Shown: positions 4,720 to 64,000, counted from the first letter of the stretch. The stretch: DNA of 64,000 nucleotides from an uncultured bacterium (GCA_963741515.1 CAVUIA010000004.1:67-64066), one strand, 5' to 3'. Translations and numbers: made by a program. Notes: generated from the letters alone by a model not told the origin.

Positions 4720-4724
4720 GAACT

Positions 4725-29025: not shown

Positions 29026-29029
29026 GAGC

Positions 29030-29311: not shown

Positions 29312-29342
29312 GAGATCTCCTTCGGATGTTGATGTCGTGGTT

Positions 29343-30679: not shown

Positions 30680-32712
<2,033 letters not shown>

Positions 32713-43260: not shown

Positions 43261-43261
43261 C

Positions 43262-43828: not shown

Positions 43829-43878
43829 AAAAGACCTGACCTTTCCGGACGTGGCCGGTGGCCCGGTATGAATGGCCG

Positions 43879-46016: not shown

Positions 46017-46071
46017 CCACCTCAAGCGAAGATGCGGAGTGCCGGGGAGAGACGGAGGGATCCCCGTTCCC

Positions 46072-46494: not shown

Positions 46495-46498
46495 GGCG

Positions 46499-47227
46499 TC
46501 ACGCCTTCTCGATCTTCCGTTCGAGGAAGTTGATGAATTCCGTCGTGAAGCCGTCGACCCGGGTGTGGATCGACCGGATGCGGTTCAAAAAATAGTTATA
46601 GGCGATGACCGCCGGGATGGCCGCCATCAGCCCCGCCGCCGTCGCGACGAGCGCCTCGGCGATGCCCGGGGCCACGGTGGCGAGGGTGGCGTTCCCCGTG
46701 GTGGCGATGCCCGAGAAGGCGTTCATGATGCCCCACACCGTCCCGAACAGCCCGATGAACGGCGTCGCGCTGCCGGTGGTGGCGAGGAACGGGAGGAGCT
46801 CCTCCATGATGCTCACCTGCTCGTGGGTCGTCTTGTACATCGCCCGCTGAACGTTTTCCACGGGAAAGCGGCTGCCCGGAGGCGGCGCATCGCCCCGCTC
46901 CCGGTGGATCCGCGTCAGCTCGATGTATCCCGCGCGGAACACCTCGGTCATCGGGGCCTTCTTCCCCTTCTCCGCCATTTCATAGAGGGCGGGGAGTCCC
47001 TTCCCCTCGGCGAAGGCGCGGGCGAAATCGGCCTGGATCCTGTCGATCCCCTTGAACAGTTTTATTTTCATGAAAATGATGGCCCAGGAAACCACGGAGA
47101 AACCGATCAGGAGGACCAGGACCAGCTTGACGATTGGTCCGGCCAGCAGGACATGCTGCAATACCTGCGTGTCGAGCAGCCCGGTCGCGGGAACCACCGG
47201 CAACGTCACCTCCAAAAGAAACATCAA
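46499..47227 (-). CDS. tolQ: TolQ/ExbB
   Basis: Three TM helices, MotA/TolQ/ExbB family. Confidence 0.85.
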   Translation of the reverse strand: MMFLLEVTLPVVPATGLLDTQVLQHVLLAGPIVKLVLVLLIGFSVVSWAIIFMKIKLFKGIDRIQADFARAFAEGKGLPALYEMAEKGKKAPMTEVFRAGYIELTRIHRERGDAPPPGSRFPVENVQRAMYKTTHEQVSIMEELLPFLATTGSATPFIGLFGTVWGIMNAFSGIATTGNATLATVAPGIAEALVATAAGLMAAIPAVIAYNYFLNRIRSIHTRVDGFTTEFINFLERKIEKA

Positions 47228-47354: not shown

Positions 47355-47762
47355 ATGAAAAAAACACGTAACACACGCCAGCGGGGGGTGATCCTCGACA
47401 TCCTCCAGGAGACGAGGGAGCACCCCACCGCCGAAAAGATCTACCAGGACGCCCGAAGAGTCATCCCCAACATCAGCCTGGGAACCGTCTACCGGAACCT
47501 GAACTTCCTTCAGGATCAGGGGCTGGTACGCGAGATCCGCCCCTGCGACGGAGGTTCGACCCGGTTCGACGGGGTCCTGGACTCCCATGCCCACTTCCAC
47601 TGCACCCGCTGCGGCGCGCTGCTGGACATCTCCCTGCCGCAGGGCTTCGAGCAGCTTCAGCTCAACAAGATGGATGGGATTTCGATGATATCATCGATTG
47701 ACCTGCACATCATAGGGGAGTGCTCGAACTGCGTGGGGGAGGGGTCGGGGTCGACGCACTGA
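47355..47762 (+). CDS. Fur-family transcriptional regulator (second copy), divergent from tolQ
   Basis: Fur fold with HFHCTRCG...ECSNC metal sites. AT-rich upstream region containing tattaataatattgat, which resembles a Fur box. Confidence 0.8.
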   Translation: MKKTRNTRQRGVILDILQETREHPTAEKIYQDARRVIPNISLGTVYRNLNFLQDQGLVREIRPCDGGSTRFDGVLDSHAHFHCTRCGALLDISLPQGFEQLQLNKMDGISMISSIDLHIIGECSNCVGEGSGSTH

Positions 47763-48594
47763 CAGCGTCTTCGCCCGCGTCCGACTCCGGATACTGGATG
47801 ATGATGCTGATTCTCCGGTTCCGGGGATCGTTCGGGTTTTCCCGGATCAGCGGCAGGGTGGCGGCGTAACCCGCAACCAGTGCAAGGCTGTCCGGATTCA
47901 GGCCAAACGTCTCGAGTTGCTTTCGAGCCGCTGATGCTCTTTCTGTCGACAATTCCCAATTCGTGTAGCGATTCGAGGAATAGCTGAGGGCGTCGGTGTG
48001 CCCTTCGATGGCGATCTTGTTCGGGACGTCCTTGATGCTCCCGGCGACGGCTTCGAGCATCTTCTTCCCGACCGCCGTCGGGGCGGACCCGCCCAGGGGG
48101 AAGATGGGCTGCCCGGCCTTGTCCACGAGCTGGATGCGCACGCCCCCGGGGAACACCTCGATCATGATCTGGTCTTCCAGCCCTTTCAGCTTGGCCTGTA
48201 TCTCGCCTTTCAGTTTTTCCTGAAGCATCTGCGGGGTCACCGCGTTGTGATCGCCTCCCTTTCCTTTTTCCTTTTCCTTTTCCTTTTTGCTCTTTTCGCC
48301 TTTTTCGAAATATTCCTTGGGGATCGACATCTCCCCGCCGGACTCGCTCAGGATCGACGTCTTTTGCGACATGATGGACGATCCGCTCTGCTCGAAGATG
48401 CTGAAGTGCTTGAAGTAGGTGGCGACCCGCGCGCGCTTCTCCGGGGCCGTCATCGACAGGAGCCACATCAGCAGGAAGAACGCCATCATGCCGGTGACGA
48501 AGTCCGCGTAGGCCACCTTCCAGGCGCCGCCGTGGTGCCCGCCGGCGATGTTCTTCTTCACCTGCTTGATGATGATGTTCTTCTGGTTGTTCAT
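47710..48594 (-). CDS. motB: flagellar stator MotB/OmpA-family protein (set 1)
   Basis: Plug and TM with the conserved Asp (YADFVT). C-terminal OmpA-like peptidoglycan-binding domain NRRISIII. Confidence 0.8.
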   Translation of the reverse strand: MNNQKNIIIKQVKKNIAGGHHGGAWKVAYADFVTGMMAFFLLMWLLSMTAPEKRARVATYFKHFSIFEQSGSSIMSQKTSILSESGGEMSIPKEYFEKGEKSKKEKEKEKGKGGDHNAVTPQMLQEKLKGEIQAKLKGLEDQIMIEVFPGGVRIQLVDKAGQPIFPLGGSAPTAVGKKMLEAVAGSIKDVPNKIAIEGHTDALSYSSNRYTNWELSTERASAARKQLETFGLNPDSLALVAGYAATLPLIRENPNDPRNRRISIIIQYPESDAGEDAVSASTPTPPPRSSSTPL

Positions 48595-48597
48595 TTG

Positions 48598-49449
48598 GGC
48601 GCCGAGCGAACGGCCTGCTCCAGTTCGGAGAAGGTGGGCTTGTCGTCGCCGGGAATGGCGCGCCGGCCGAACTCGACGGCGATCTGGGGAGCGGATCCGC
48701 CGACGAACGCGACGATGGCCAGCTTGATGACCTGGTAGGACGACCTCTTCCTCCTTCGCCTTGTAGGCGAGGTTCGCCGCCATCGGGCCGACGAACCCGT
48801 AGCAGAGGAGGATGCCGAGGAACGTCCCGACGAGCGCCGCCCCGATGCTGTGGCCGAGCACGGCGGGAGGCTGGTCGATCTTCCCCATCGTGAGGACGAT
48901 GCCGAGGACCGCCGCGACGATGCCGAGGCCCGGGAGACTGTCGGCGATGGTGGTGAGGGCGTGGGACGGGACCTGCGCCTCGTGGGTGCCCGTCTCGATC
49001 TCGATGTCGAGCAGGCCGTCGAGCTCGTGCGGCGGGATGCTCGTCGTGATGATGACCTTGAGGTTGTCGCAGATGAAGTTCAGGAGGTGCTTCTCCTTCG
49101 CGATGGACGGGAACCTCTTGAACAGCGGGCTCTGGTCGGGATGCTCGATGTCCGCCTCGATGGAGATGAGCCCCTCCTTGCGGATCTTGGAGAACACCTG
49201 GTACAGGAGCGACAGGAGCTCGACGTAATGGGCCTTGCCGTGGGTCCGGGTGCTGAAGACGGTCCCGATGCTGCGGCCGACCTGGGAGACGACCTTGGAC
49301 GGCGAGCCGATGAGGAAGGCGCCGACGGCCGATCCGACGATGATCACCCACTCCGCCGGCACTAGGAGTATGTGGAGGTTCCCGCCCTCCATCAGGAAGC
49401 CGCCGATGACGGCGACCAGGACCACCGCGAAACCGATGATGGTCATCAT
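48598..49449 (-). CDS. motA: flagellar stator MotA/PomA (set 1); frame shift near the C-terminus
   Basis: MMTIIGFAVVLVAVIGGFLMEGGNLH... with four TM helices. The frame reads through into motB. Confidence 0.75.
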
Positions 49450-50141
49450 GGGCGGTTCCCCCCGGCCCCGTCGAGAAGCAGGACGACGTCGACCCGGCGG
49501 TTCCGGACGCGCCCCTCCGGCGTCGCGTTGGTGGCGATCGGCCGGAACTCGGCGTACCCGGCCGCGGAAACGCGCTCGGGAAGCACGCCGTGGACCCCGA
49601 GGAGCTGCGCGAGGACGCTCGTCGCCCGCGCGGTGGACAGCTCCCAGTTGGAGGCGAACCGGGCGTTCGAGATCGGAAGGCTGTCCGTGTGCCCCTCGAC
49701 GATCGCCTTGCACCCCGATTTCCTCAAGATGGCGGCCACGGCGGCCAGCGCGACCTCGGACGACGGCTTCACGTGCGCCTGGCCCGCGTCGAACAGGGCG
49801 TGCTCGCCCATCGAGAGGACGAGCCCCCGGTCGTCCGGGCGGACGGAGACCACCCCCGCCGCGCCGGACATCTCGATCATGCGGACCGCGTCCCGCTTCA
49901 CCTGCTCCGCCGCCGGGAACACCGGGGCGATCCCCTCGATGACCGGCTTCCCCTTGTCGGGAACGCGCGGGCCGAACGCCGCCCGCGTCGATCCGACGAA
50001 CTCGCCGAGCTTGGCGTTGTCGACGCGGCTGATCGCGTACATCACGGTGAAGAACGCGAACAGCAGCGTGATGAAGTCGGCGTAGGACACGACCCAGCGG
50101 TCCGGGTTCTCCTGCTCTTCGAACCGCGCGCGCCGCCTCAT
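49446..50141 (-). CDS. motB: flagellar stator MotB (set 2)
   Basis: WVVSYADFITLLFAFF TM with Asp. OmpA-like C-terminus. ATGA overlap with motA2. Confidence 0.8.
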   Translation of the reverse strand: MRRRARFEEQENPDRWVVSYADFITLLFAFFTVMYAISRVDNAKLGEFVGSTRAAFGPRVPDKGKPVIEGIAPVFPAAEQVKRDAVRMIEMSGAAGVVSVRPDDRGLVLSMGEHALFDAGQAHVKPSSEVALAAVAAILRKSGCKAIVEGHTDSLPISNARFASNWELSTARATSVLAQLLGVHGVLPERVSAAGYAEFRPIATNATPEGRVRNRRVDVVLLLDGAGGNRP

Positions 50142-50887
50142 GCCGCGCTCTCCACGAACGATCTCAGCCTCTGCTCGAGGTAGTAGGGGTTCACCCCCGA
50201 CTGGATCCCGAGCACCCCCTCCAGGATCATCTCCCGCAGGCACAGGTCGTCGTTCAGCCGGTTGTTGAGCTTCTTCGACAACGGGAGCAGCACGAGGTTG
50301 GCGGAGCCGACGCCGTAGATCGTCGCGACGAAGGCGACCGCGATCCCCGCGCCGAGCTTCGAGGGGTCGGTCAGGTTCTCCATCACGTGGATGAGCCCCA
50401 GGACCGCGCCCAGGATCCCCACCGTCGGGGCGAACCCGCCGGCCGTTTCGTACACCTTCGCCACCCTCCTCCTCTCGTCCTCGTACGTCGCGATCTCCCG
50501 CTCCAGCGTCTCCCGCAGCATCTTCGGGTTCATCCCGTCGATCGACAGCCGGATCGCCCTCCGGAAGAAGACGTCCTCGATCCCCTCCACTTCGGGCTCG
50601 AGCGCGACGAGCCCGTTCCTTCTCCCGGTGACCGCGAAATCGACGATCCGCCGGATGACCGGGTCGAAATCGGGCCGCTCCCCGAAGAAGACGTCCTTCA
50701 GCGACGCGGCCGCCCGGCGCACGTCGGAAAAGGGAAAGCTGACGAGGGTGGCGCCCAGCGTCCCGCCGAGGACGATCGCGGCGGCCGTCCCCTGGAGGAT
50801 GGACCCCACGCCCCCGCCCTCGAGGACGTTCCCGGCGACGATCGCCGTGACGCCGAGGGTGATCCCGATGATGCTCGAACGGTCCAA
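50138..50887 (-). CDS. motA: flagellar stator MotA (set 2)
   Basis: MotA/TolQ/ExbB family with four TM helices. Probable TTG start with a GAGGGA RBS. Confidence 0.8.
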   Translation of the reverse strand: MDRSSIIGITLGVTAIVAGNVLEGGGVGSILQGTAAAIVLGGTLGATLVSFPFSDVRRAAASLKDVFFGERPDFDPVIRRIVDFAVTGRRNGLVALEPEVEGIEDVFFRRAIRLSIDGMNPKMLRETLEREIATYEDERRRVAKVYETAGGFAPTVGILGAVLGLIHVMENLTDPSKLGAGIAVAFVATIYGVGSANLVLLPLSKKLNNRLNDDLCLREMILEGVLGIQSGVNPYYLEQRLRSFVESAA

Positions 50888-50902
50888 GCGTCCCTCGCTC
50901 CG

Positions 50903-51649
50903 CTACTCCCGGGAACTCCGGATGATTTCCCTCTGGCGCATCAATGAGTACTGGACGATCTCGTTCCGGAGCTCCTCGCTCATCTCGGTGAAATGCAGCG
51001 CGATCTCGGTCTCCCCGTCCCCCGCGTCGTCGGCGCGTATGACGTTCCCGTAGACGATCACGCCGAGGGGCGGCCGGGCCGGGAGGAGCATCTTCACCTC
51101 GAGGATGTCCCCGGCCTCGAACCGGTCCTTCGTCCGGAACGCCATCCCGGTGGCGCTCATGTTCACGTGCGTCTTCTCCGCGTGCAGGAACCCCTCGGTC
51201 TCCATGTCGAGACGCTCCAGGATCATCCCGAGCATCGTGTGGATGTTGATGAGCATCTGCCACACCCGGGGGTTCACGTCCAGGGTGTTCGCCTCCCCCG
51301 TGACGGGAGCGACGACCTCGCTGAACGGGAACGACCGCGACACGCACATGGCCTCATGCTGCGGCACCTTCCTCGCCACGAGCGGGACCACGTCGTCGAC
51401 CCGGAAATAGCCCCGGCTGTTGGACCAGGTCTTCCGCGCCCTGACGTTGCCCTTCTCGAAGGAAACGACCTCCGCGAAATACTGCCCCCCGTTTGCGGAG
51501 ATCATGAGCTGCTGGCCGGCGGCGATGTCCTTTTTCCCCTCCACGTCGAGGACGATGGTCTCCCCGTCCGTCGAGACCACGGTGGCCTGCTGGAGGATGA
51601 CCTCCGGCATGGTCTTGAAGAAAACCTTCTTACCGGTTTCCAGTTGCAT
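50903..51649 (-). CDS. PilZ-domain c-di-GMP receptor, YcgR-like (flagellar brake candidate)
   Basis: RxxxR (RGYFR) and N-x-S-x-x-G (NMSATG) motifs. N-terminal PilZN-like domain. Position between the HD-GYP gene and motA. Confidence 0.75.
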   Translation of the reverse strand: MQLETGKKVFFKTMPEVILQQATVVSTDGETIVLDVEGKKDIAAGQQLMISANGGQYFAEVVSFEKGNVRARKTWSNSRGYFRVDDVVPLVARKVPQHEAMCVSRSFPFSEVVAPVTGEANTLDVNPRVWQMLINIHTMLGMILERLDMETEGFLHAEKTHVNMSATGMAFRTKDRFEAGDILEVKMLLPARPPLGVIVYGNVIRADDAGDGETEIALHFTEMSEELRNEIVQYSLMRQREIIRSSRE

Positions 51650-53137
51650 TGGAGCACTCCTCTTCCTTGAGCGTTTCCATGAAGACCCGGACCATCTCCG
51701 GGTCGAACTGGCTTCCCGCGCAGCGGTTCAGCTCCGCGATCGCATCCTCGCAGGTGCGCGCTTTCCTGTAGGGGCGGTGCGACGTCATGGCGTCGTACGT
51801 GTCGGCGACGGCGAGGATCCGCGCGATGGGCGGGATCTCCTCCCGCGCGATGCCGTCGGGATAGCCCGTGCCGTCGAACCGCTCGTGGTGGTGCCGGATC
51901 ACCTTCCGTTCCTTGTCGAAGAAGCGGATCGGCTTGACGATCTCGTCGCCGATGGACGAGTGGAGCCGGATCTCCTGCATCTCCCCGTCCGTCAGGCCGC
52001 CCGGCTTGAGGAGCACCGTGTCGCGGACCCCGATCTTCCCGATGTCGTGCAGGTACCCGCCGAACCGGAGCGTGTCGATCTCGTCGGAGGCCAGGCCCAT
52101 CGTCTCCGCGATCCGGAGCGCGTACATCGTGACCCTCTCGGAGTGCTCCTTGGTGTAGGAGTCCCGCACCCCGATCGTCGTGATCAGGCTTTTGAGCGTC
52201 GCGACGATGTTGTTGAAGAAGACCTCGTACAGCGCGTTGTTCTCGATCTTGGAGGAGATCTTCTTGGCCAGGTTGATCGCGATGAAGACCTCTTCCTCGG
52301 TGAAGGCGGTGCCGTCGGCCTTGCCGGAGAGGTTCAGGATGCCGAACACGTCGTTCCCGACCAGGAAGGGGATCGCCAGGAGCTGGGACATCAGCGGGAT
52401 GCCGGTGTACGGGTTCGGCTTCCCCACGTCGATGACGTGGTGCTTCCTCCCGCCGAGGACGGCGTCGAAGAAGGGACCCGTCGACCTGGAAGGACGCCTG
52501 CCCGATGCCGACGGCCGACCGGACCGTCAGCCGCCCCCCCTCGATGATGCCGAAGGACACCTCCTGGACCGCGAGCAGCTTCGCGGCCATCTCGGCGACC
52601 CGCGCGTAGATCTCCTTGTTGTCGTGGCACCGGTCCACTTCGGGCTGATCGAGTGGAGGGACGCCGATCTCCTGCAGCCTCTTGAACAGCTCGGCGTTCA
52701 GTCTCTTCAGGGAGTCGTCGGACCCCTGCGTCGACGCGAGCCGGCCGTACAGCTTCCATTCCCCGAGGACCCGCTCCGTGGTGGAAACGATCTTGTCCAG
52801 CGTGAACGGCTTGGTGATGAAATCGGACGCCCCTTTCCGCATCGCGCGACACGGCGATCTCCATCGAGGAGACGCCCGTGAGGACGATGACGGGCACGGA
52901 CGAATCCATTTCCTTGCTCTTCCGGAGGAAATCCATCCCGTTCATGCGGGGCATCGTCAAATCGGTGAAGATGACGTCGTACCGGTTGGACCGGATCTTC
53001 TCGAGCCCTTCCATGCCGTCGGCGGCCACGTCCGTGTCGTAATTCCCGATCTCGGTCAGCACCTGGGAAAGAAGCTCCCTGACGCCCGGATCGTCGTCGA
53101 CGATGAGGATCCGGCCTTTCCTTTCCGTTTCAAACAT
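51630..53137 (-). CDS. response regulator with REC - GAF-like - HD-GYP phosphodiesterase domains; frame broken twice (near 52850 and 52470)
   Basis: REC ILIVDDDPGVRELL...DVIFTDLTMPRMNG. HD-GYP HHERFDGTGYP. The pieces lie in ORFs 52391-53137, 51502-52842 and 51630-52427. Confidence 0.7.
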
Positions 53138-53194
53138 CTACCTGCCCCCGCGCGCCGTCCGGAAATATGTCAAATCACCTTCATTACTTCGGAA

Positions 53195-53252
53195 GAAAAC
53201 GGGGAAAACATTAGGGGATTGTTGCGATCGGAAACGGGAAAACAAGGGGAGG
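53195..53252. repeat. two purine-rich direct repeats (GAAAACGGGGAAAACAttAGGGGA / GAAACGGGAAAACAAGGGGAGG) in the leader of the HD-GYP operon
   Basis: Read directly from the sequence. Pyrimidine-rich on the coding strand. Confidence 0.5.
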
Positions 53253-53333
53253 TGCGAACCGCGGATACACCTTTACTGTCCGCCGGATAACCGGCGTTTT
53301 CGAACCGGAGCGGGGAACGACCCGGACCTGTCC

Positions 53334-53564
53334 CTAGGTCCCGGTCTTGATGCGGCTCAGGACGGCGTTCTTCGTCTCTTCCATGATCTTCTGGCGTTTC
53401 GCTTCCGCCGAAAGAGTCACGACGTCCTTGAGGTCCGCGGTTTCCGGCTCCGTCTCCACCGACAGGTCCCTGCTCTTCAGGACCCTGTGGTAAAGATTGG
53501 TTACCTCCCCGATTTGAAAGGGGAATACCGTCATCTGCCTAACCTCCGTGTTCGGCAGCACCAA
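53334..53564 (-). CDS. hypothetical 76-aa protein (weak FlgM-like V-x-L-S-x-x-A motif)
   Basis: ...DVVTLSAEAKRQKIMEE... Too short and too divergent for a firm call. Confidence 0.3.
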   Translation of the reverse strand: MVLPNTEVRQMTVFPFQIGEVTNLYHRVLKSRDLSVETEPETADLKDVVTLSAEAKRQKIMEETKNAVLSRIKTGT

Positions 53565-53639
53565 CTTGCCTTGACTGTACTTATCGGATGGTTCTGCGAA
53601 TACTTAAGCGGGGGGGGGCTTTTAACCGGGAGGAAGCGA

Positions 53640-54115
53640 TTTTTTTCAGCCGGAGGCGAGGCGGTCCCGGACGGCCTCGAACTCCTTCTTCCCTTCCCCG
53701 AGGAGGGGGGAGAGCTCGTACTGGATCAGGTCGGCCAGGGAGATCCAGTCCTTCCTTTCCATGGCCGCCTGCATTTCCCGGAACAGGTCGAGTGGACTTG
53801 TCGAGGGAGGAGAAGGCCTCCGCGGGAACGGGCTGGGACGCCAGGTGGGCGATTCCTTTCCGGATCTCCTGCACGAGGGCGATGAGGTCGCCGAGATTGG
53901 TGACCCCCACCGAGAGCACCGAGAAGGTTTCGTTCGACGGGTCGACCCGGAGCCGCTTCGAGCAGTCGAGGAGCCCGGCGTCGATTTCCCCGACGACCGA
54001 GATCGCGGCTATCGACCCCTTCCCGGATCCTTGCAAGCAGCTCGACCTGTCGCGGATCGTCGTTCCCCATCGCGTCCCTCCCGGTAATGGATGGATCAAG
54101 TATTGCACGAACCAT
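53640..54115 (-). CDS. hypothetical protein of about 150 aa spread over three frames
   Basis: Protein-like segments MVRAILDPSITGRDAMGNDDPRQVELLARIREG / IDAGLLDCSKRLRVDPSNETFSVLSVGVTNLGDLIALVQEIRKGIAHLA / LDLFREMQAAMERKDWISLADLIQYELSPLLGEGKKEFEAVRDRLASG*. Confidence 0.35.
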
Positions 54116-55808
54116 GCTGCGCTTTCACCTGCTTTTCGACCAGGCGTTCGATCGTTTCCGCCAGCATGGAAAAATGGCTTTTCAGGTCGGAGTAGAGCCC
54201 GAGGGCGGTTTCCGCCATCGGCGCGAGCTCCTTCCCCTCGAGCGCCTCCTTCCCGAACCCGAACAGGACGACCGGAGGCATCAGCGGGGGGTGGGTGCGC
54301 CCCAGCGTCTCGATCTCCCGGTCGATGACGGGGACGTCCTTCCACGTCCGGCGGATCCATTCCGCGTCCGGGGAGGGCTTCGCGGCCTCGCGGGCGATCA
54401 GGGAAACCCTCGTGAGGGCCTCCCCCGCGAGCGCCTCCATCCTCCGCAGGGTCGCGAGGTCGTCGCCGATCTCCCCGAGGATCCTTTCCAGCTCCCCCTC
54501 CCCGTGCCAGGCGGCCGCCTTGGCCTCGATCGTCCCGCACGCCTCTCCGACCGAAAATCCCGACTCCCCGTCCAGAATGCGCGGCCACGTCTCCCGGTAA
54601 AGGTACGTGTAGAACGTCTCCCGGGACAGGGAGCGGCGGATGAGGGGAACGTAGTCCTGCAGGCCGTCCCGCGCGAACCCGGAGCGGAAGACCCGGACCC
54701 CGCTCCATACCGGGCCGTCGTCGAGAGCGTCGACGCCGCCCTTCTCCAGGATCCGGCACCCGAGCTCGAACACGCTGTCGGCCGTGATCATCTCCTTGCA
54801 ACGCGGGTCCGTGCACTTCACGTGGAACCCGCACGGGCCGCAGGGGATGTCCGCCTCGATCACGTAGTGCCCCTCCCCGTACGGCCCGGTCTCCCGGAAG
54901 CAGACGTGTCCCAGCGACACGTCGATGGCGGGCGTGCCGACCGCCGTCGCGATGTGCAGGGGCCCCGTATCGTTCGTGACGAGGAGCGCGCACCGGTTCA
55001 GGAGCGCGGCGGCCCCCCGCAGGTCGGTCTTCCCGATGAGGTTGACCGCCTTCGTTCGGCGGCCAGCGATTCGAACTTCTTCCCGAGCTCCGCCTCCGAC
55101 CCGGATCCCGTTGAGCACGATGCGGGCGCCCAGGTCTTTCGCGAACCGGTCCGCGAGCCGCGCGAAGGAGGCCGCCGGCCAGGTCTTCACGTCGTCGCTC
55201 GCCCCGAGCTGGAAGCCGATGACCAGGTCGTCCCCGGCGACCCCGTGTTCCGCGAGAACCGCGTGCGCCTTCCCGCGTTCCTCGTCCGATACCGACAGGT
55301 GGAGCCCCTCGCCCGAAGGCGGGATGCCCGCGGCCTTGACCATCATGTCGCAGAGGTGGAAGGGGTTGTACCGGCGGGACGGGATCACGTTCATGAAGTA
55401 CCGCTGCCAGGGATGCTTGATGATCCGGGACCCGTCGGCGCCCGCGGTCACGCCCCGGATCTCCCGCGCGCGGAACAGCGAGGTCAGGAGCGCGCTCTCC
55501 CCCGACGGCGTGAAGTTGATCGCGAGGTCGTATTCGGTGTCGTTCACGCCGTCGATGAACGCTTCAAGGCGCCGGTAGCAGTCGACGAGGGAGTGCTCCT
55601 CCTCCCGGAACATTTTCCGGAACGCGACCTTGTCGTACGTCAGGAGCCGGTCGATGAACGGAAGGTCCTTGCAGATCTCCTTGAATTCCGAGCTCACGAG
55701 GAGGGTGATCCTGGCCGCGGGATACGACTTTTTCAGCCCCGCCATCACCGGTGTCGTCTGGATGAGGTCCCCCATCCGGGTCAGGTTGACGAGCAGGATC
55801 TCCTTCAT
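54096..55808 (-). CDS. glycosyltransferase family 9 (heptosyltransferase-like) with a C-terminal extension of about 220 aa
   Basis: MKEILLVNLTRMGDLIQTTPVMAGLKK GT9 N-terminus ...LLVTNDTGPLHIATAVGTPAI... The ORF reads in-frame from the upstream CgeB-like gene, so a fusion or a missed shift is possible. Confidence 0.7.
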   Translation of the reverse strand: MKEILLVNLTRMGDLIQTTPVMAGLKKSYPAARITLLVSSEFKEICKDLPFIDRLLTYDKVAFRKMFREEEHSLVDCYRRLEAFIDGVNDTEYDLAINFTPSGESALLTSLFRAREIRGVTAGADGSRIIKHPWQRYFMNVIPSRRYNPFHLCDMMVKAAGIPPSGEGLHLSVSDEERGKAHAVLAEHGVAGDDLVIGFQLGASDDVKTWPAASFARLADRFAKDLGARIVLNGIRVGGGAREEVRIAGRRTKAVNLIGKTDLRGAAALLNRCALLVTNDTGPLHIATAVGTPAIDVSLGHVCFRETGPYGEGHYVIEADIPCGPCGFHVKCTDPRCKEMITADSVFELGCRILEKGGVDALDDGPVWSGVRVFRSGFARDGLQDYVPLIRRSLSRETFYTYLYRETWPRILDGESGFSVGEACGTIEAKAAAWHGEGELERILGEIGDDLATLRRMEALAGEALTRVSLIAREAAKPSPDAEWIRRTWKDVPVIDREIETLGRTHPPLMPPVVLFGFGKEALEGKELAPMAETALGLYSDLKSHFSMLAETIERLVEKQVKAQHGSCNT

Positions 55809-55949
55809 CTCCCCGCCGCTCATCCGCCGATCGCCTTCATCGCGAGGAAGATCCTCTCGACGCGGGTGAGGTCTCCGCTGCCCGACCCGATCTCCCGGGT
55901 GATGTCCGCGAGCTTCAAGCTCCGCGCGCCCGCGAAGCGCGAAAGGTAT

Positions 55950-57580
55950 TTCCCGAGCTCCGTGTCCGGTCCCGCCTGCCCGACGAGGCGACCGGGGTCT
56001 TCCCGTTCCCGCATCTCCTGCCACGGAGGCCGGAATCCGGATCCGGATCAGGAAACCGATCATCTCCTCCATCCGGCGCTCGTAGGTGTGGTCCCGAAGG
56101 ACCCGCTGCCGCCCCCTCTCGGCGACCGCCTTCCTCTCCTCCGGGTCCGCGAGGTAACGGGCGATCTTGGCGCGAAGGTCGGCGAGGCTGTCGAAGCACG
56201 CAACCTCTTCCCCGATCCGGAAGAAATCGGACAGCCCCGAGCCGGAGGTCCACGAGCTGGAACCCGCCGCACGCCGCGATCTCGAACGTCCGGGGGTTCA
56301 CGAAATCGCCGTCGGGGTTCACCCCCTCGTGGTAGCTCGAGGAGTGGAGGTTGATGTTGATCCGGGAGGCGTTGAAGATCTTCACGATGTCGTCCGTGTC
56401 GACCCGGGCGCCGTCGCGCTGGAGGAACCCGCGGAGGGCGGGGCACGACCCCCACTCGTTCCCCCAGATCCGGAAGTCGAGGTCGACCAACCCCTCGAAG
56501 AGCCGGCGCCGGTTGTAGTACCCCGCGCCGACGAAGGAGACGTCGCCGCCGAATTCCTCGAGCTCGCCGGGGGACAGCTCCGACCTTCCGGTGGACCTCG
56601 GGAGATGCGGCCATCGGGAGGAAGGCGACGTTCCTCGCGCCGGCCTCCCGGAGCCGTTCGAGGAAACCGCCCTCCTGGATCGCGAAGAAATAATCGTATT
56701 TCGAGGCGGTGTCCCGCCAGTACCCCATGTGCCGGAAATCCTCCACGAACCAGAAAACGGTGGCGATCCGCCGCTCCCGCAGGACGGCGAGGGCCGACTC
56801 CAGGAACGGCGCCTGGGCCAGGACCAGGACGATGTCGGGGCGGAACGGGACGATCCGCGCCATCGCGGCCTCGGAGGCGAACTCGCCGAACTTCATCCTC
56901 AGGATGTCCCGGTGCGGCGCGCTATCCGTGATCTTGTCGATCGAGAGGAACGTCTCCCCGAAGACGCCGTTGTCGATGAATTCCACCTCGTGCCCCAGGT
57001 TCCGCAGGGCGGAGGCGCAGTAGCCGGCGACGGGAAGCGACCCGCCGTGGAACGGACCGACCACGGCGATCCTCAAGCCCCGCGCCGCGGCGTGGAGGGC
57101 TTCCAGCCGGAGAGCGGCTTTTTCGAAGACGGCCGGGTCGAGCCGGACCGACGGCGCGTGGCGCAGGATCCCGAACGGACCGGCGGGCGCCGGGGCCGCA
57201 AGGTCGTCGCAGTCGGCGGCGATCCGCGCCCTGGCAAGGATCGGCGACAGGTCCCGGGCCTCCAGGGCGGTCCGGAGGATGTCGACCCTGGGCTCGAACA
57301 CCGTCGACCGGCTTGTCCGTTTCGCGCAGAAGCTCCTCGACGTGGTACCCGAGCCCGAACCCGAAGACCGCGATCGACGACGAGGATTCGATGTCGTCGC
57401 GGTAGTGCTCCACCCAATCCCGCGCTTCCCGCACCGGGTCGTAGACGCTGTGGAGCGCCGCGTCGCCGACTTTAAGGGACGGGGGCCCCGCCTTCGAAGG
57501 GACGACGCAAGGCCGGCGCCGCGTTCCGCGTTCCGGACGCGTTCCGCCAGCCGCCCGTCGACGGCCTCGAGCCCCCTCAT
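55950..57580 (-). CDS. CgeB-like (DUF3880 + GT1-like) glycosyltransferase with a Maf-like N-terminal domain (copy 1); at least 3 frame shifts
   Basis: N-terminus MRGLEAVDG...LHSVYDPVREARDWVEHYRDDIESSSSIAVFGFGLGYHVEEL. Middle ...RIAVVGPFHGGSLPVAGYCASALRNLGHEVEFID... C-terminus IVKIFNASRININLH...VNPRTFEIAACGGFQLVD...RVLRDHTYERRMEEM. Confidence 0.6.
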
Positions 57581-57603
57581 GTTCCGTTCGAGAAACACCA
57601 ACG

Positions 57604-60514
57604 TCACTTCCCCGGGAGGCCGGCGCTTTCGATGGCCGCCTTCCGCCGGAGCGCGTCCTCGCGCCCCGGCTCGAACAGCAGGATCTTCTCGAGGTCTTCC
57701 AGGGCAGCTTCCCTCATGCCGAGCCGGAAAACAACGTCGGAATGGGCCAATAAGGCGGCCGCGTCGAGGGGATGCTCCATGAGGCGCCTCTCGAGGACGG
57801 CGCGCGCGCCTTCGAGGTCCCCGGACGCCAGGGCGGCTTCCACTCCCGCGCTCAAAGACCGCGCCGCGGAATCCGCCTTCCGGGCCCGGAACAGGTACTG
57901 GAAGACGAACAGGTCCTTCACCTCTTCCCGCGTCTGGCCGCGGAGCGTGACCCGGCCGAACGAGACGTCCCCCGCGTGGGCGGAAGGAAGGGAATCGTAC
58001 CCGGGAGACAGGTTCTCCGAGATCCCTTCCGGTTCGAAGCCCGCCTCGAGGAAGAGGATCTCCATCTCCTTCTTCGTGAAAAAGCGCAGGTGGGTCCGGT
58101 CGAGAATCCCGAAATCCTTGTATTCCCACCGCCCCTCGGCGAGCCGGTCGATGACCCCCAGGAACCGGACGTTCGGTATGCTCGCAACGACCGTCCCCGA
58201 ATCGGCCAGATGCCGCTTCAGCTTTTTCAACGCCGACAGCGGGTCCCGGAGATGCTCCAGGACGTCCGCCAGGACGATGCAGTCGAAATATCCGTCGTCG
58301 AAGGGAAGGTCCAGGGCCTCCACGTCCCCCCGGAAGACCCGCGACAACACCTTCCGCGCGGCATCCGCCGTCGCCGGGTCCGTTTCGATCCCCACGACTT
58401 CGGAGGCGCCCATCTCGAGAAGGGCCCGTCCGAGGGCCCCCTCGCCGCAGCCGACGTCGAGGATCCGCGACGCCCCCACGGGAATCATCGCCATGACCTC
58501 CCTGCGCTCCTGGCGGTAATAGGAGCGGTCCTCCGCGGCCGGCGCCGTGATCGACGCCTTCCCGGCGGAAACCGGCACGGCGGCCTGGACCGGCGCGGCG
58601 GCCTGGACCGGCGCGGCGGCCTGGACCGGCGCGGTAGCCTGAACCGGCGCGGCGAAACGTACCGACGCGGCGGCCTGGACCGGCGCGGCGGCCGCCCGGT
58701 TGCCCTCCCGGAGGACCCTTTCGAACACCTTGCCCACCTGTTCCGCCACCACCTTCGAATCGTACTTTCGTACGGCCCGCGCCCTGCCCTTCCTTCCCAG
58801 CTCCGCCCTCAAGTCTTCGGAGAGGCACAGCGACGCGATCGCGCCCGCGAGCTCCCCCGGATCGTTCGCCGGCACGAGGATCCCGGCGTCCCCGACCACC
58901 TCGGGGATCGAGCCGGAAGAGGTGGAGACGACGGGGGTGCCGCACGCCATCGCCTCGACGAGCACCATCCCGAACTGCTCCTTCCACATCCGCATGGAGA
59001 TGCTCGGCAGGACGAACAGGTCGGCCGCGTTGTAGAGGTCGCGCATCCGGTCGTAGGGGTGGCTCTCGACGAAGAGGAACGATTCCCCGAGGCCGATCTC
59101 CCCGGCCCGGGCCATCACCGCTTCCCGCTCCGGGCCCTTCCCGACCATCACGTAGCGGACGGGGCGCCCCCCCGGCTCGGCCTTCACGAGCTTCGCGGCG
59201 TGGACGAGGTCGTACACGCCCTTTTCCCAGACCATCCGGCCGGTAAAGAGGACGACGATCTCGCCGGAAGAGATCCCGAGCGCCGTCCGGCAGGAATCCC
59301 GCAGCGCCGCGTCCGGGCGGAACCCCTCCGTGTCGATCCCCATCGGGATGACCGTGATCCGCCCCGGGTCGACCCCCTCGAGCACGAGGGCCTCTTTCGC
59401 CCGTTCCGTCACGGCGATGAAATGGTCCGCTCCCGGCGCGCACGGCGGACTTGAGGGTCCTTCATCTCCCCGTGTTCCTCGTAGGCGAACGGGATGTTCT
59501 CCCACTGGAGGCACACGAGCTTCTTCCCGAATTTTTCCCGTATCCCCGCCGCCTGGAACGAGAACATCCAGGTCGTGTCCGCGGAAAAGACGAGGTCCTC
59601 GTCGAACAGCGCGAACTCCAGCCCCTGCATGTAGCCGCCGATGCTGGGGATGTGGGGGCAGTTTGACGACGGGGAGCCGCACCTTGGAGCCGATGTCGAA
59701 GCTCGGGTTCGTCGTGGTGTACGCCGTCAAGTCGTACGACCCCGACAGCGGCTCGTAGTTCTGCATCTCCCACGGGTTCAGGTTCGGGCCCCGGACGATC
59801 CCGACGCGGGGACGGCCGGACTCGCCGCCCTTCCCGGACGGGTACGGGGGCACGCGGCTCCCCACGGCCGCCGACGCCGGTCTCGGCTGGATGTCGTATT
59901 CCCGGTACACCAGGTCCGCCGGACTTTCGAAACCGCTGCCGGGGATCGCGGCGTAGGACGCCCCCTTTTCGGAGTAACGGGCGCGATCGAGGAAACCGTA
60001 ATGGACGACGTAGGCCTGGATCGGGACGACCTTCCCTTCGATCCCCGCCAGGCGCTCGTGCACCTGGCCCTCCCAACGGATTCCCGGGCGGTTCCGCCAG
60101 ATCCGCGGGATCGCCTCGTAATCGTCGTATGCCTTCGAATAAAACGATTCGCTGCCGACGAGGTTGCACTGCCGGATGGTGCAGCCCCCCGCCTCCGGCG
60201 GAAGCTGCTCGAGGAAAGCGCGGATGCCGCGCTCGAACTCGTCCGAGAACGCCTCGTCGGCGTCGAGGCGGACGATCCAGTCGCCCGTGCACCGCTCGAG
60301 GCAGGCCTGGCGCTGGTCGCCGAAATGCCCGGTCCACGGGTTCGCCACCACGACGACGCGGGGGTCCTTCCGGAGGATCTCCACCGTGCGGTCCGGTGCT
60401 GCCGCCATCGACCACCACGATCTCGTCGGAGAACGAGCACGAGGCGAGGGCCCTGCCGATGTTGCGCTCCTCGTTCATGGTGATCATCGAGACGGATATC
60501 TTCATCGTTTCCAC
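57604..60514 (-). CDS. large multidomain protein: GT2 - GT4 - (AAPVQA)n linker - class I SAM methyltransferase - TPR-like tail; several frame shifts
   Basis: GT2 ISVSMITMNEERNIGRALASC...DWIVRLDADE. GT4 ...EQFGMVLVEAMACGTPVVSTSSGSIPEVV. MT ILDVGCGEGALGRAL...FDCIVLADVLEHL. The pieces lie in ORFs 59462-60514, 57604-60408 and 59409-59630. Confidence 0.6.
58573..58698. repeat. tandem repeat of 18 bp x 7 (cggcgcggcggcctggac), encoding the (AAPVQA)n linker
   Basis: Read directly from the sequence. The first units are perfect and the last are degenerate. Confidence 0.8.
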
Positions 60515-60539
60515 CTTCCCTGTTTTTCCCGCGCGGCGG

Positions 60540-62210
60540 TCACCCGTAGAGCTCGCGGAGCCGCCGGACGATCGCGTCGACCCGGTGCCGGTACGTGTGC
60601 TCCCGGAGGACCCGGCTCCTCCCCTTCGCCGCGACGGCTTCCCTCGCGGCGTCGTTGCGCAGGTAGAACCTCGCGAGATCGTCGATCTCGTCGAGGTTCC
60701 CGTAGGTGATCACCTCTTCCCCGACGTCGAAGAGCGCCTCGAGCGACGGCTGGTGGTCGGTGAGGAGGAACGCGCCGCAGGCGGGGACGTCGAACACCCG
60801 CTGGTTCACGGCCGTCCCCATCTGGACGCTGGTCGCGTTGAAGTTGACCTTGCAGGCGTTGAAGAAGAGCGGCAGCTCCTTGTAGTAGTTGAGCTGGGAG
60901 CCCAGCCGGAACTTCCCGTTGAGGAGCCCCTTCCAGCCGGCGTCGCCGCGGACGAAGGGCCGGAACTCCTCGAGGGCCCGCAGCCGGGAGAGCCGGTAGA
61001 GAAGCGTGGCGCGCCACAGGACGGCCGCCTCGAACGCGGATTTCTCCCTTGCCGTCAACGCATCGAACGCTTCCCGCTCGCCGTCGTGCATCGCGCTTTC
61101 CGCCGCTTCCGGGAACCGCATGTCCCGCGAGACGCCCAGGCGCTGCGCGGTGCGCTCGACGGCGGGGCGAAGTTCCCGCCGCACCTTGAGGAGCCCTTCC
61201 CGCGACGGGGCGACCATCGAGTTCCCCACGAACCCGACGTCGGAGCCGATCTTCCTCTTTTCCGCGAACGACAGGCCGCGGGGCCGGAAGGTCGTCTCGT
61301 CCGCCCCGAGGGGGAGGTACGCGACGTTCTCGAAGCCGACGGCCTTCAGCGATTTCATGTAGCTCTCGTCCCAGACGAAGACGCAGCAGAGCGGGGACGC
61401 GTTCTTCGGGAAAGCCCTCACCACGAGGTCGGGGCTGTCCACGTACCAGATCGCGGCCGGCATCTCGATCGACCGGAACAGGTCCGCCAGGGCGCCATCC
61501 TCGTCGAACCCGAAGTGGTTGACGGTCAGGAAGAAGTCGGGGCGGTCGGAGGCGATGGTCTCGACGGCGCGCCCCAGGATGTCGCCGACCGTCTCGTCCT
61601 TCCTGCCGCGGACCCGGACCACCGCGTGCCCGAGCGCCTCGAGCGCGCGGACGATCTCCTCGGTCAGGAAGTAGCCGAAGTCGAACAGGGCGACCGTCAG
61701 CCGGTCGGAGCGGAACTTGGGGTACCGGAGCCGTTCCCAGAGCCGGAAGGATATCGTCCGTTCGAGCGCATCGCGGACCGGGCCGTAATACCCCAGGAAA
61801 GCCGCCGTTTCGGACGAAAGGGAGAAGACGGCGAGCGACGGCAGCCCCGCCTCCAGATGGAGACGGGAGATCCCGGCGACCGCTTCGGCGGGCGTCTTTC
61901 CCACGAGGAAGCGGACCTTGTCCGACGGTTCCGTGCCCTTCCCGTGCTCCCGGCAGAGGTCGAGGATCTCCTGCGACGACTCGACGACCACGATTTGGGC
62001 TCGGGGTGCCGCCGCCTCAATTCGTCGAGGTGGTAGCCGAGCCCCAGCCCCAGGATGACGATCATCCCCTCGCCGCCGAAGGCAAAGGCGTCGACCATCC
62101 CCGACGGCCTCGCCGACGGGATCGTAGAGGCTGTGAATGGTTTTTTCGGAGCCGTCGGAACCGGCGACTCGCAGCGAATAGTTTCCTTGTCGGGTCCGCA
62201 CCAGGTTCAT
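60540..62210 (-). CDS. CgeB-like (DUF3880 + GT1-like) glycosyltransferase with a Maf-like N-terminal domain (copy 2); 1 frame shift near the N-terminus
   Basis: ...GLGLGYHLDEL...; RLTVALFDFGYFLTEEIVRALEALGHAVVRV. C-terminus NACKVNFNATSVQMGTAVNQRVFDVPACGAFLLTDH...VLREHTYRHRVDAIVRRLRELYG*. Confidence 0.7.
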   Translation of the reverse strand: MNLVRTRQGNYSLRVAGSDGSEKTIHSLYDPVGEAVGDGRRLCLRRRGDDRHPGAGARLPPRRIEAAAPRAQIVVVESSQEILDLCREHGKGTEPSDKVRFLVGKTPAEAVAGISRLHLEAGLPSLAVFSLSSETAAFLGYYGPVRDALERTISFRLWERLRYPKFRSDRLTVALFDFGYFLTEEIVRALEALGHAVVRVRGRKDETVGDILGRAVETIASDRPDFFLTVNHFGFDEDGALADLFRSIEMPAAIWYVDSPDLVVRAFPKNASPLCCVFVWDESYMKSLKAVGFENVAYLPLGADETTFRPRGLSFAEKRKIGSDVGFVGNSMVAPSREGLLKVRRELRPAVERTAQRLGVSRDMRFPEAAESAMHDGEREAFDALTAREKSAFEAAVLWRATLLYRLSRLRALEEFRPFVRGDAGWKGLLNGKFRLGSQLNYYKELPLFFNACKVNFNATSVQMGTAVNQRVFDVPACGAFLLTDHQPSLEALFDVGEEVITYGNLDEIDDLARFYLRNDAAREAVAAKGRSRVLREHTYRHRVDAIVRRLRELYG

Positions 62211-63805
62211 CGCGTTAGAAGTAGCAGACGCCCTTGGCCAGCAGGTGGTCCATCCGCTTCTGCTCTTCCGTCAGATCGTCCCCCGGGTTTCCGATTCGAG
62301 ATAGTACGACCCCGCCGCCTCGCCGACCACCGAAGCGAGGATCTTGCGGATGCAGGCCTCGAACTCCTTTTCCCTGCCCTGGTAGGACAACCGCTTTCCG
62401 GCGAGGAACCCGGTGAATTTTTCGACGCTCGCTCAGGAAATGGGGCACCAGGAAGTTCTTCCGGAACCTGTGCCGTTCTCCGGGAAGGAGGACCACGCTT
62501 CCGAAGACGCCGGGGCAGGCGGCCTCCAGGCGATCCTCGCAGGACCCCCCGGCTTTCCCAAGGGCCGCCGATACGTCTTCCGGCGACGCATCGAAGTACC
62601 GCCTGAAGGAGGACACGAACGCGGCCGCCGCGTTCACGGGCCCGGGATCCAACGCTCCCGGTTCCGGAAGCGCCAGCATCACCAGGTCGAGCAGGTCGGC
62701 GACGTTGGCGACGAAGGTCCGCCAGCCGATGTCCTGCACCTCGAAGAAACGGGGCAGGGAATTCTTCATGGTGTACAGGTTCGCCTTCGTCCCGATGTAA
62801 TGGCGTTTCAGGATGTAATCCGGCCCCCGGTCGTGCCAATGGTAGACCCCGGTCGACGACAGGAACCCGAGCCTCTTCCCCTTCTCGAGCATCCGGATCC
62901 CCAGGTCCATGTCTTCCGCGTTGATGAGGGGGCGGAACGGCACCTCTCCGTACACGCTTTTCGGGATGCAGGAGGAGACGTTGTCGAGGAACGATACCCG
63001 GCGCTTCGTCAACGGATCGAAATGCTTCCAGTCCGTGAAATCGAACGACGGGGACAAGCCGTAGACGGTATCCCCCTCGTACCCGAGGCATCGCGTTCAT
63101 CGCCTCGTTCGTCCACAGGCTGAACAGGTCCGCCTCCGGACGGGTGAACTGCCTCGAGGTGACGGCGCCCAGGTCGGGGACCGAGAAGAACGGGCTCACC
63201 ATGCCGTAGAGCCAGTAGTTGCTCACCGGCACCGCGTCCTGGACGGTGAACACCAGGTATTCCCCCTTCGCCTGCCCGGCCCCGATGTTCCGGGTCCCAC
63301 CGTGATTGAATTCCTTCTGGGGAATGCAGATCACCCGGCAGCCGAACGACTCGGCGACCGCGACGGAGTCGTCCGTCGATTCCGAGTCGAGGACGAGGAT
63401 CTCGACCTCCCCCACCTTTTTCTGGGACCGCACCCTGCGGAGCAGTTCCGCGAAGGTCTCCCCGCCGTTCTTCACGGGAATGATCACGGAGATGCCGCAG
63501 GCAAGCGTCGCGGGACGCGAACCGTCGGGCATCGGATCGACGCGGACCTGGGCATTGAGGAGCCGCGTGAGCGCCTCTTCCTTTTCGTGCAATTGCCGCC
63601 CGATCTCCCTGATTTTCCTTTCATCGGCCAGCAGCGCGCCGAGCTGCCGGTCCGAGATGACCTTCTTCGCCTTCAATATGCGGCTCGCGCATTCGAGGGC
63701 CCATTGCATTTCCTGAAGCCGGTCCCCGCTCCCGTCCGCGGTTTCGGCTCCGTTTCCCGACCGAAGATCGTCTTGCCGGCTTTCCGATCGTTCGAGACCT
63801 TTCAT
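62207..63805 (-). CDS. glycosyltransferase family 2 with an N-terminal coiled-coil region; frame shifted
   Basis: ISVIIPVKNGGETFAELL...ILVLDSESTDDS... (GT2 DxD region). The C-terminal half is in frame 62215-63057. Confidence 0.65.
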   Translation of the reverse strand: MKGLERSESRQDDLRSGNGAETADGSGDRLQEMQWALECASRILKAKKVISDRQLGALLADERKIREIGRQLHEKEEALTRLLNAQVRVDPMPDGSRPATLACGISVIIPVKNGGETFAELLRRVRSQKKVGEVEILVLDSESTDDSVAVAESFGCRVICIPQKEFNHGGTRNIGAGQAKGEYLVFTVQDAVPVSNYWLYGMVSPFFSVPDLGAVTSRQFTRPEADLFSLWTNEAMNAMPRVRGGYRLRLVPVVRFHGLEAFRSVDEAPGIVPRQRLLLHPEKRVRRGAVPPPHQRGRHGPGDPDAREGEEARVPVVDRGLPLARPGAGLHPETPLHRDEGEPVHHEEFPAPFLRGAGHRLADLRRQRRRPARPGDAGASGTGSVGSRARERGGRVRVLLQAVLRCVAGRRIGGPWESRGVLRGSPGGRLPRRLRKRGPPSRRTAQVPEELPGAPFPERASKNSPGSSPESGCPTRAGKRSSRPASARSSLRWSARRRGRTISNRKPGGRSDGRAEADGPPAGQGRLLLLTR

Positions 63806-63834
63806 CTCTCCTCCCGGTACCCGCGGTTCATACG

Positions 63835-64000
63835 AACGCCGAGTCGTCCATCATGGCCGCTTTGAGAAATTCATAATCGACTCCCTTGACCTTGGGAATC
63901 ATCGCTCCCCTGTCGTTCGGGTTCCCGCTGTATTCCTCGAGGATGAGCCCGTTGTCCTTGTAGAACGGGTAGAGCAGGCTCCCGGGAACGGGAGTGTACA
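63835..64000 (-). CDS. 3' end of an upstream gene (C-terminal ~55 aa ...PFYKDNGLILEEYSGNPNDRGAMIPKVKGVDYEFLKAAMMDDSAFV*); product not identifiable
   Basis: Open frame to the window edge, ending in a stop at 63835. Confidence 0.4.

Follow-up and report, generated by a model that had tools for sequence, protein, structure and literature searches.

Most of what is understood about the glycosylation of flagellin comes from pathogens, in which Maf or FlmG enzymes and sugars resembling sialic acid are used. Known flagellin glycosylation islands (Campylobacter, Aeromonas, Pseudomonas, Clostridioides difficile and Geobacillus) hold glycosyltransferases (GTs) and methyltransferases in the late flagellar region beside fliC, fliD and fliS, and their accessory content varies between close relatives. 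GmaR, which transfers N-acetylglucosamine to Listeria flagellin, carries a tetratricopeptide repeat (TPR) domain (PMC9638930), and the TPR domain of FlmG binds flagellin (PMC7591256). The present analysis concerns a 64,000-nucleotide stretch of DNA from an uncultured bacterium (GCA_963741515.1, CAVUIA010000004.1:67-64066; this whole stretch is referred to as the window), the last 10 kb of which hold a run of glycosylation genes. We consider it probable, at roughly 0.62, that this run is part of a flagellar-locus glycosylation island of a Thermodesulfobacteriota-like bacterium, that its enzymes O-glycosylate flagellin, and that the frame breaks running through its genes are consensus errors. 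The island resembles the known ones in its classes of enzyme, its position and its variable accessory content, but the enzyme set is a different one (two paralogs joining a Maf-N-like module to a GT-B fold, a GT9 enzyme that ends in a helical tail, and a fusion protein of four modules) and the hosts are uncultured, sulfate-reducer-like bacteria of the Thermodesulfobacteriota and Nitrospirota. Islands of this general kind are well known; in the searchable literature neither the present enzyme set nor its hosts are described. The evidence is comparative, and the individual domains are ordinary.

Between 54.1 and 64.0 kb the window contains six co-directional minus-strand genes, and every real gene between 47.7 and 64 kb lies on that strand, as judged from a frame plot of GC content at third codon positions (GC3) and tblastn with intact orthologs. 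The original prediction, made from the sequence alone, of about 10 kb of co-directional glycosylation genes including a separate GT2 gene was borne out by these methods and by Pfam. The island and its motility neighbours are as follows (aa, amino acids; L-numbers denote related loci used for comparison and P-numbers ortholog proteins).

63828..64000, minus strand: B12-binding radical-SAM gene truncated at the window edge, with only its 3' end present (stop codon 63828-63830; tblastn to residues 398-453 of the L001 radical-SAM protein, 91% identity; Pfam B12-binding and Radical_SAM on the L001 ortholog)
62215..63805, minus strand: GT2 glycosyltransferase gene, ~528 aa (Pfam Glycos_transf_2, E=5e-17, in the raw open frame 62207-63805; colinear in two frames with the 528-aa GT2 of L001)
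60540..62210, minus strand: CgeB-like paralog A, 556 aa, with a partial Maf N-domain motif, DUF3880 and Glyco_trans_1_2 (Pfam)
57604..60505, minus strand: GT2-GT4-methyltransferase-TPR fusion gene, ~966 aa (Pfam, frame reconstruction, full-length orthologs)
58567..58698, minus strand: 18-bp x 7 tandem repeat in the fusion gene, encoding (AAPVQA)n in the GT4-methyltransferase linker (Tandem Repeats Finder (TRF), codon-register listing)
55820..57601, minus strand: CgeB-like paralog B, ~590 aa, Maf N-domain-like with GT-B (DUF3880 and Glyco_trans_1_2) and a 70-aa helical tail (tblastn, in four frames; Pfam)
54096..55823, minus strand: GT9 (heptosyltransferase-family) gene, 574 aa (Pfam PF01075, E=1e-26)
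53646..54115, minus strand: DUF8042 gene (tblastn, three frames; PF26154 on the orthologs in L001, L002 and L064)
53334..53534, minus strand: unbroken gene for a conserved protein of 66 aa (orthologs in L001 and L002 are 92% identical to it)
51639-53137, minus strand: HD-GYP-type response regulator gene
50906-51649, minus strand: PilZ gene
49467-50887, minus strand: motA1/motB1
47713-49449, minus strand: motA2/motB2

The flanking motility genes (47713..53137) were placed by tblastn with L001 proteins, to which they are 84-92% identical, and named from Pfam matches on the L001 gene calls. In the raw sequence the GT9 match falls in an open frame at 54096-56072, the Glyco_trans_1_2 and DUF3880 matches of paralog B are scattered over fragments between 55.9 and 57.6 kb, and the paralog B stop overlaps the GT9 start as ATGA.

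From 47.7 to 64 kb the window is colinear with L001 and L003, from the metagenome-assembled genome (MAG) 'bacterium UBA2219', where the order is fliC (278 aa)-flaG-fliD-fliS-fliT-B12/radical-SAM-GT2-CgeB-like A-fusion-CgeB-like B-GT9-DUF8042-66-aa protein-HD-type response regulator-PilZ-motA/B-motA/B. Because the window ends inside the radical-SAM gene of this order, the flagellin gene would fall just beyond base 64000, and only the motAB/PilZ side of the island is visible in the window itself. The same filament genes, fliC-flaG-fliD-fliS-fliT, lie directly upstream of the island in L008 and L009. The core of the island (paralog A, fusion, paralog B and GT9) recurs in four Nitrospirota loci (L005, L006, L064 and L065), and in L064 it is followed by DUF8042, the response regulator, PilZ and motAB. 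Relatives of Thermodesulfovibrio or Syntrophorhabdus may also have the module, as L010 and L009 suggest. Two consecutive motA/motB pairs are present in the window (47713-50887, minus strand); the fetched L064 locus covers only the first motAB pair. In L067, the segment from fliT to CgeB-like A (1139-6799) encodes a GT4-TPR protein, a GT2 fragment, a 311-aa protein and a SPASM radical-SAM-TPR protein, a gene set different from the B12 radical-SAM and GT2 genes of the window and L001; with L067 ~93% identical to the window, this shows that even close relatives differ in their accessory genes. No membrane-spanning segment was predicted in any island protein. Within 10 kb on either side of the island we saw no flippase or lipid-carrier priming enzyme, and none of the nonulosonic-acid (pseudaminic or legionaminic acid) biosynthesis genes, canonical Maf or FlmG. 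The expectation that the island lies beside motility genes held for PilZ and two motAB pairs in the window but not for flagellin, which is not in it; the proposal drawn from those neighbours, that flagellin is the target, was strengthened by the filament genes upstream in relatives and by a GmaR-like GT2 domain in the fusion protein.

The fusion gene had been predicted as a frame of about 2.9 kb concatenating GT2, GT4, methyltransferase and TPR modules, and Pfam recovered the first three clearly and the TPR weakly. The raw sequence has a 934-aa open frame (57604-60408) with a partial GT2 domain, Glycos_transf_1 (GT4), Methyltransf_23/11/25 and a weak TPR_14 match; PF00534/PF13692 and PF13489/PF08241 are both present, with E=5e-37 for Glycos_transf_1 and E=1e-20 for Methyltransf_23. 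When the three minus-strand frames are read together, the corrected protein of ~966 aa begins MKISV at 60505 and stops at 57604, and comprises GT2 (residues ~1-180), a conserved junction, GT4 (~235-600), an Ala/Pro linker, the methyltransferase domain (~665-830) and a tail of two TPR-like repeats. The GT4 domain has 6tvp and 6kih as relatives in the PDB, and the methyltransferase domain has a match to 3cc8 (E=2e-42). Searching 5.8 billion proteins yielded full-length orthologs of 945-971 aa (P0001-P0015; 65-88% identity, ~100% coverage) from Thermodesulfobacteriota, Desulfobacteria and Syntrophorhabdaceae MAGs, and a second set of about 908-938 aa from Nitrospirota (40-57% identity). At least 26 clusters drawn from NCBI, ENA, JGI and Logan assemblies have a single 908-971-aa frame with the same domain order (overall 40-90% identity). 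Columns of the catalytic regions are invariant among the full-length orthologs, and the GT2-GT4 junction, 27-30 aa long, retains conserved residues in an alignment of 27 sequences. These comparisons indicate that the fusion protein is genuine and that the GT2-GT4 junction is not a hidden gene boundary.

The N-terminal GT2 domain points to a role of the fusion protein in flagellin modification. It matches Listeria monocytogenes GmaR (PDB 22ao) with a phmmer E value of 2.3e-13, residues 3-174 aligning to GmaR 11-180. GmaR was the best of only four PDB matches, and the significant ones (GmaR, 7msk and SunS, the last annotated as a peptide S-glycosyltransferase) all glycosylate proteins or peptides directly. 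Thus the first ~175 aa of the fusion are homologous to the GT domain of GmaR (a GT2 + TPR protein), and both proteins carry TPR-type repeats. In GmaR, however, a long TPR and an anti-repressor domain follow the GT directly (PMC9638930), whereas in the fusion GT4 and the methyltransferase intervene, there are about two C-terminal TPR repeats, and an anti-repressor domain is lacking. Caulobacter FlmG (TPR + GT-B) follows the same modular logic, in that a flagellin-binding repeat domain is combined with a soluble GT, and it acts on small flagellins of ~275 aa, the L001 flagellin being of 278 aa. Domain order and families differ between FlmG and the fusion, and FlmG transfers pseudaminic acid, for which no pathway genes were seen here.

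The linker between the GT4 and methyltransferase domains contains the strongest tandem repeat of the window. TRF finds 6.8 copies of an 18-bp unit at 58571-58693, scoring 176 (the runner-up scores 79), in agreement with the original prediction of seven 18-bp copies at 58573-58698 encoding a linker, and in the coding register the seven units read AAAPVQ/AAASVR/FAAPVQ/ATAPVQ/AAAPVQ/AAAPVQ/AAVPVS. Measured between the anchors 'FERVL' and 'DRSYYRQ', the linker ranges from 14 to 69 aa across orthologs; it is Ala/Pro-rich, non-alignable and 41-68 aa long in the deltaproteobacterial-type proteins and 14-23 aa long in others, while the Nitrospirota-type fusion has a different, conserved segment of 69 aa at this position. 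Even among three relatives ~93% identical in DNA it measures 60 aa (window), 41 aa (L002) and ~52 aa (L067), and the clean tandem repeat is found only in the window, being absent from both L002 and L067. This pattern indicates that the linker is a poorly constrained spacer and the repeat a lineage-specific expansion. The suggestion that the linker varies in length is thus supported at the level of orthologs. Exact-match scans of metagenome contigs with a double repeat unit and with a conserved 21-mer beside the linker gave no match.

The two CgeB-like paralogs had been described as combining a Maf-like N-terminal domain with a DUF3880/CgeB-type C-terminus. The second half of this description was confirmed in full, as DUF3880 (YkvP_N) and Glyco_trans_1_2 score above cut-offs in both paralogs; the first holds for only ~50 residues of the N-domain. 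The match to Maf_flag10_N (PF20157) is partial (model positions 110-163 of 228), covers the GxGLGYH motif, and reaches 32-36 bits against a cut-off of 23.5 in L002 paralog B, with L001 A and B falling below the cut-off, although it is precomputed on most members of the paralog family. A PDB profile match to Maf (5mu5) at the same motif is weak (E=0.22), and PF01973 (MAF_flag10/DUF115) gave no match at E<=0.1 in either paralog or the intact orthologs. An AlphaFold (AF2) model of a paralog B ortholog (P0121, built from 43 sequences) has a pLDDT of 91.6 and is predicted to consist of an N-domain of four parallel strands flanked by helices (Rossmann-like), a complete GT-B fold and, last, a tail of helices. 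The modelled N-domain agrees with the Maf N-domain as published, which is described as a degenerate four-stranded Rossmann fold (PMC11339370). In Foldseek the model finds the retaining GT4 enzymes BshA, TreT and MshA (E~1e-10) and PimA, the top 50 matches being dominated by the GT-B part.

On sequence and predicted fold, the paralogs are not members of the Maf family and appear to be chimeras of a Maf-N-like module and a CgeB-type GT-B. With Maf (Magnetospirillum Maf, PDB 5mu5) they probably share the LGLGLGY...EP motif region of the N-terminal degenerate Rossmann domain (PF20157) and a place in a flagellar locus, but the central MAF_flag10 (PF01973) sialyltransferase-like domain that defines Maf is replaced by a GT4-like GT-B fold. 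With Bacillus subtilis CgeB/YkvP they share the DUF3880 + Glyco_trans_1_2 core, and source databases call the orthologs 'spore maturation protein CgeB', but both paralogs begin with an additional domain of ~175 aa, and paralog B also ends in a helical tail; CgeB/YkvP is linked to sporulation, whereas the paralogs sit in a flagellar context and their hosts are not known to be spore formers. The family is large (3243 matches at E<=1e-5), and its members are annotated only as 'CgeB' or 'glycosyltransferase'. The C-terminal extension of paralog B has no Pfam match even at E<=10.

The GT9-like gene with a long C-terminal extension was also as predicted (PF01075, 94 bits; PDB 3tov, E=1e-29). The protein is laid out as a GT9 domain, an invariant motif of four cysteines (Cys4), a beta-hairpin and a helical bundle of ~170 aa, so that ~230 aa extend beyond GT9; this extension has no Pfam match even at E<=10, and none of the NCBIfam heptosyltransferase equivalogs reaches its cut-off. 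Foldseek places the AF2 model (pLDDT 89.3) nearest to 3tov, WaaF and WaaC, with a target-normalised TM-score (TMt) of 0.85 to 3tov and 0.79 to WaaF. The Cys4 motif (CxxC-x5-C-x4-C; window ~54798-54842, minus strand; P0241 residues 327-341) comes right after the GT9 C-lobe and is invariant in 43 orthologs, which suggests a metal-binding knuckle. A TibC-like protein heptosyltransferase of the bacterial autotransporter heptosyltransferase (BAHT) family was considered for this enzyme and rejected: there was no sequence match to TibC, and TibC (4rap) ranked 43rd by fold with a TMt of 0.49. TibC/AAH, which acts on protein, shares the GT-B heptosyltransferase-like fold, and the position of Cys4 is comparable to that of the TibC iron finger near the C-lobe, although the two are not homologous by sequence. 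TibC/AAH has an N-terminal beta-barrel, a thumb built from a beta-hairpin, and the iron finger, whereas the GT9 model starts directly with the GT9 N-lobe, without the beta-barrel, and its predicted fold is closest to lipopolysaccharide (LPS) heptosyltransferases. DUF8042 follows the island in both phyla, and the 66-aa protein gene follows DUF8042 in the window, L001 and L002 (segments concerned: window 53334-54115, minus strand; L001 16387-17123; L064 19550-19978). The proteins of these two genes have no Pfam match even at E<=10; the 66-aa protein has a weak NCBIfam match to the DVU0524 FlgM-associated family (E=9e-4, below cut-off).

All island genes are frame-broken relative to intact orthologs. 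Global alignment to L002 (92.7% nucleotide identity) reveals ~18 single-base indels, mostly insertions, and those left uncompensated are nearly all single extra bases. The inserted bases lie mostly outside homopolymer runs, and errors of the homopolymer type were rejected on that ground. In the GT2 gene an extra base (+1) lies near 63089 and the sequence is garbled over ~62275-62435; paralog A has a +1 at ~62106 and a -1 at ~62007, which put residues ~35-72, including the VVLGLGLGYH region, out of frame; the fusion gene has four +1 insertions (near 60395, 59640, 59458 and 59437), paralog B five indels (near 57511, 57307, 56584, 56242 and 56042), and GT9 a +1/+2 pair, between whose members (~55113 to ~55057, ~56 nt, after which the frame is regained) ~20 residues are garbled. 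The claim that every island gene carries frame breaks is therefore correct, but the damage exceeds the interval given for it (54096-64000), as DUF8042 (two +1 insertions, near 54012 and 53794), the response regulator (two breaks) and motA2 (one) are also broken; PilZ, motA1, motB1 and motB2 are clean. The denser indel stretch spans window 52400-63100 as compared with 1-52400, and no such indel occurs in the ATPase operon (25.8-32.5 kb).

Comparison with relatives makes consensus errors, rather than gene decay, the most likely cause of these breaks, because the indels are private to the window, stops are absent, the differences are biased to third positions, the substitutions look selected, and L067 is broken elsewhere. 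At nine of nine sites checked (both paralog A indels among those private to the window) the indel is absent from L001, L002 and L067. Read in the reference frame, ~3300 codons contain no in-frame stop and there are no large deletions. Differences from L002 favour third codon positions, and the codon changes private to the window number 46 synonymous to 40 non-synonymous, as against 94:62 in the intact L002 lineage. L067 (contig_6086, a long-read-style name), 93.5% identical to the window, has frame breaks of its own at other sites and ends inside the island; orthologs from short-read MAGs are intact. If the breaks were instead genuine, the island genes, together with some neighbouring ones, would be pseudogenes in a lineage losing flagellin glycosylation. 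This would account for every island gene being hit and for the concentration of breaks, ~1 per kb in 52-64 kb compared with ~0.13 per kb in 0-52 kb (~8x, from a GC3 hidden Markov model), which a uniform error rate does not explain; our guess is that consensus quality was lost locally, in a strain-variable region or near a contig end. The usual indel bias in bacteria is towards deletion, opposite to the single-base insertions seen here, and together with the lack of nonsense codons, the purifying selection still evident in the window-private substitutions, the different breaks of L067 and the unbroken short-read orthologs, this makes real decay very unlikely; long-standing pseudogenisation is rejected on the absence of stops and the substitution pattern. 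The four indels within the fusion gene might also mean that separate GT2, GT4 and methyltransferase genes were joined artificially by errors. We regard the chance of this as close to nil, since intact, independent orthologs keep all four modules in one 908-971-aa protein instead of stop-separated genes, and the junctions between domains are conserved in sequence and length.

The comparisons above show the domain content, the reality of the fusion, the synteny, the solubility of the enzymes, the predicted folds and the variability of the linker; the mechanism that follows is inferred throughout. Soluble enzymes, whose genes lie with the filament genes (fliC-flaG-fliD-fliS-fliT) on one side and the stator genes (motAB) on the other, would O-glycosylate flagellin while it is still in the cytoplasm, ahead of its export. 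The GmaR-like GT2 domain of the fusion would place the first sugar on Ser/Thr of flagellin, GT4 would extend the glycan and the S-adenosylmethionine (SAM) methyltransferase domain would methylate it, while the short TPR-like tail might help to hold flagellin or a partner protein and the Ala/Pro-rich linker, enlarged here by the 18-bp repeat, would serve as a flexible spacer of unconstrained length. The CgeB-like paralogs, the GT9 enzyme, the separate GT2 and the B12/radical-SAM enzyme may add or modify further residues. Such a mechanism fits the locus because the enzymes are soluble, the position between filament and stator genes is conserved, the GT2 is of GmaR/SunS type, and TPR-like and Maf-N-like modules are present.

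Besides the uneven density of frame breaks, several points weigh against this reading. Adjacency to flagellin comes from orthologous loci, the window having no flagellin gene inside it. Priming by the fusion is a guess, as the Maf-N/GT-B paralogs or the GT9 enzyme could prime instead, and the tail of the fusion has only weak TPR matches, below Pfam cut-offs and amounting to about two repeats. The structural neighbours of GT4 include 7qsg, a methylmannose-polysaccharide mannosyltransferase that makes a cytoplasmic methylated polysaccharide, and the searchable literature gives no demonstration, for any member of the module, of a glycan or of flagellin carrying one, nor was anything found linking CgeB or DUF3880 with flagellin. 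The main rival explanation builds on some of the same facts: the island glycan would not be on flagellin but would be a cytoplasmic methylated oligo- or polysaccharide, or decorate another flagellar or surface component, its flagellar-locus position reflecting co-regulation or chance. The 7qsg relationship and the missing flagellin glycan data would agree with this, GT4-methyltransferase fusions would suit the synthesis of a methylated polysaccharide, and GT9 enzymes are classically heptosyltransferases of the LPS core. Yet two phyla retain the island's place between fliC-fliT and motAB, membrane, flippase and lipid-carrier components are lacking, the clade to which the GT2 domain belongs (GmaR, SunS) has proteins or peptides as acceptors, and a partial Maf N-domain motif occurs in both paralogs, so that we judge a non-flagellin glycan unlikely, though less so than real decay of the genes or an artificial fusion. 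Within flagellin O-glycosylation, a more specific proposal is put forward tentatively, at somewhat less than an even chance: the core (CgeB-like A, fusion, CgeB-like B, GT9 with helical tail, and DUF8042) may be a previously unrecognised flagellin O-glycosylation system that works without nonulosonic acids and is common to Nitrospirota and Thermodesulfobacteriota, in which the Maf N-domain has been recombined with GT-B and one four-module enzyme carries out priming (like GmaR), extension and methylation of the glycan, with a minimal flagellin of ~278 aa as the acceptor.

The remainder of the window adds the following, all on the minus strand. Beyond motB2 lies a Tol-Pal-type cluster (42412-47227) encoding TolQ-like, TolR-like and TonB/TolA-like proteins and a YbgF/CpoB-like TPR lipoprotein, after which come the housekeeping genes TsaD, KsgA, deoxynucleoside kinase and PanB. 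At the Rfam gathering threshold the window yields a single match, a tmRNA gene (33667-34017; tag peptide ANDYPLAQAA). Frame segments of the ATPase operon (25810-32541) fit an N-ATPase-like order, beta-epsilon-Q-R-a-c-b-alpha-gamma, Pfam having been run on 31051-32541 only (ATP-synt_ab). At 24133-25740 two genes with weaker GC3 bias, encoding a 158-aa membrane-anchored coiled-coil protein and a 368-aa membrane protein, occupy a patch with GC 0.58 and GC skew -0.14.

In practical terms, the frame breaks of the window are not to be read as pseudogenes. If the proposed function is correct, the known routes to glycosylated flagella would be broadened by a different enzyme set in environmentally abundant anaerobes of two phyla, the large family annotated as 'CgeB' would gain a functional context, and the fusion protein would represent a natural multi-step assembly line for a glycan within one polypeptide.

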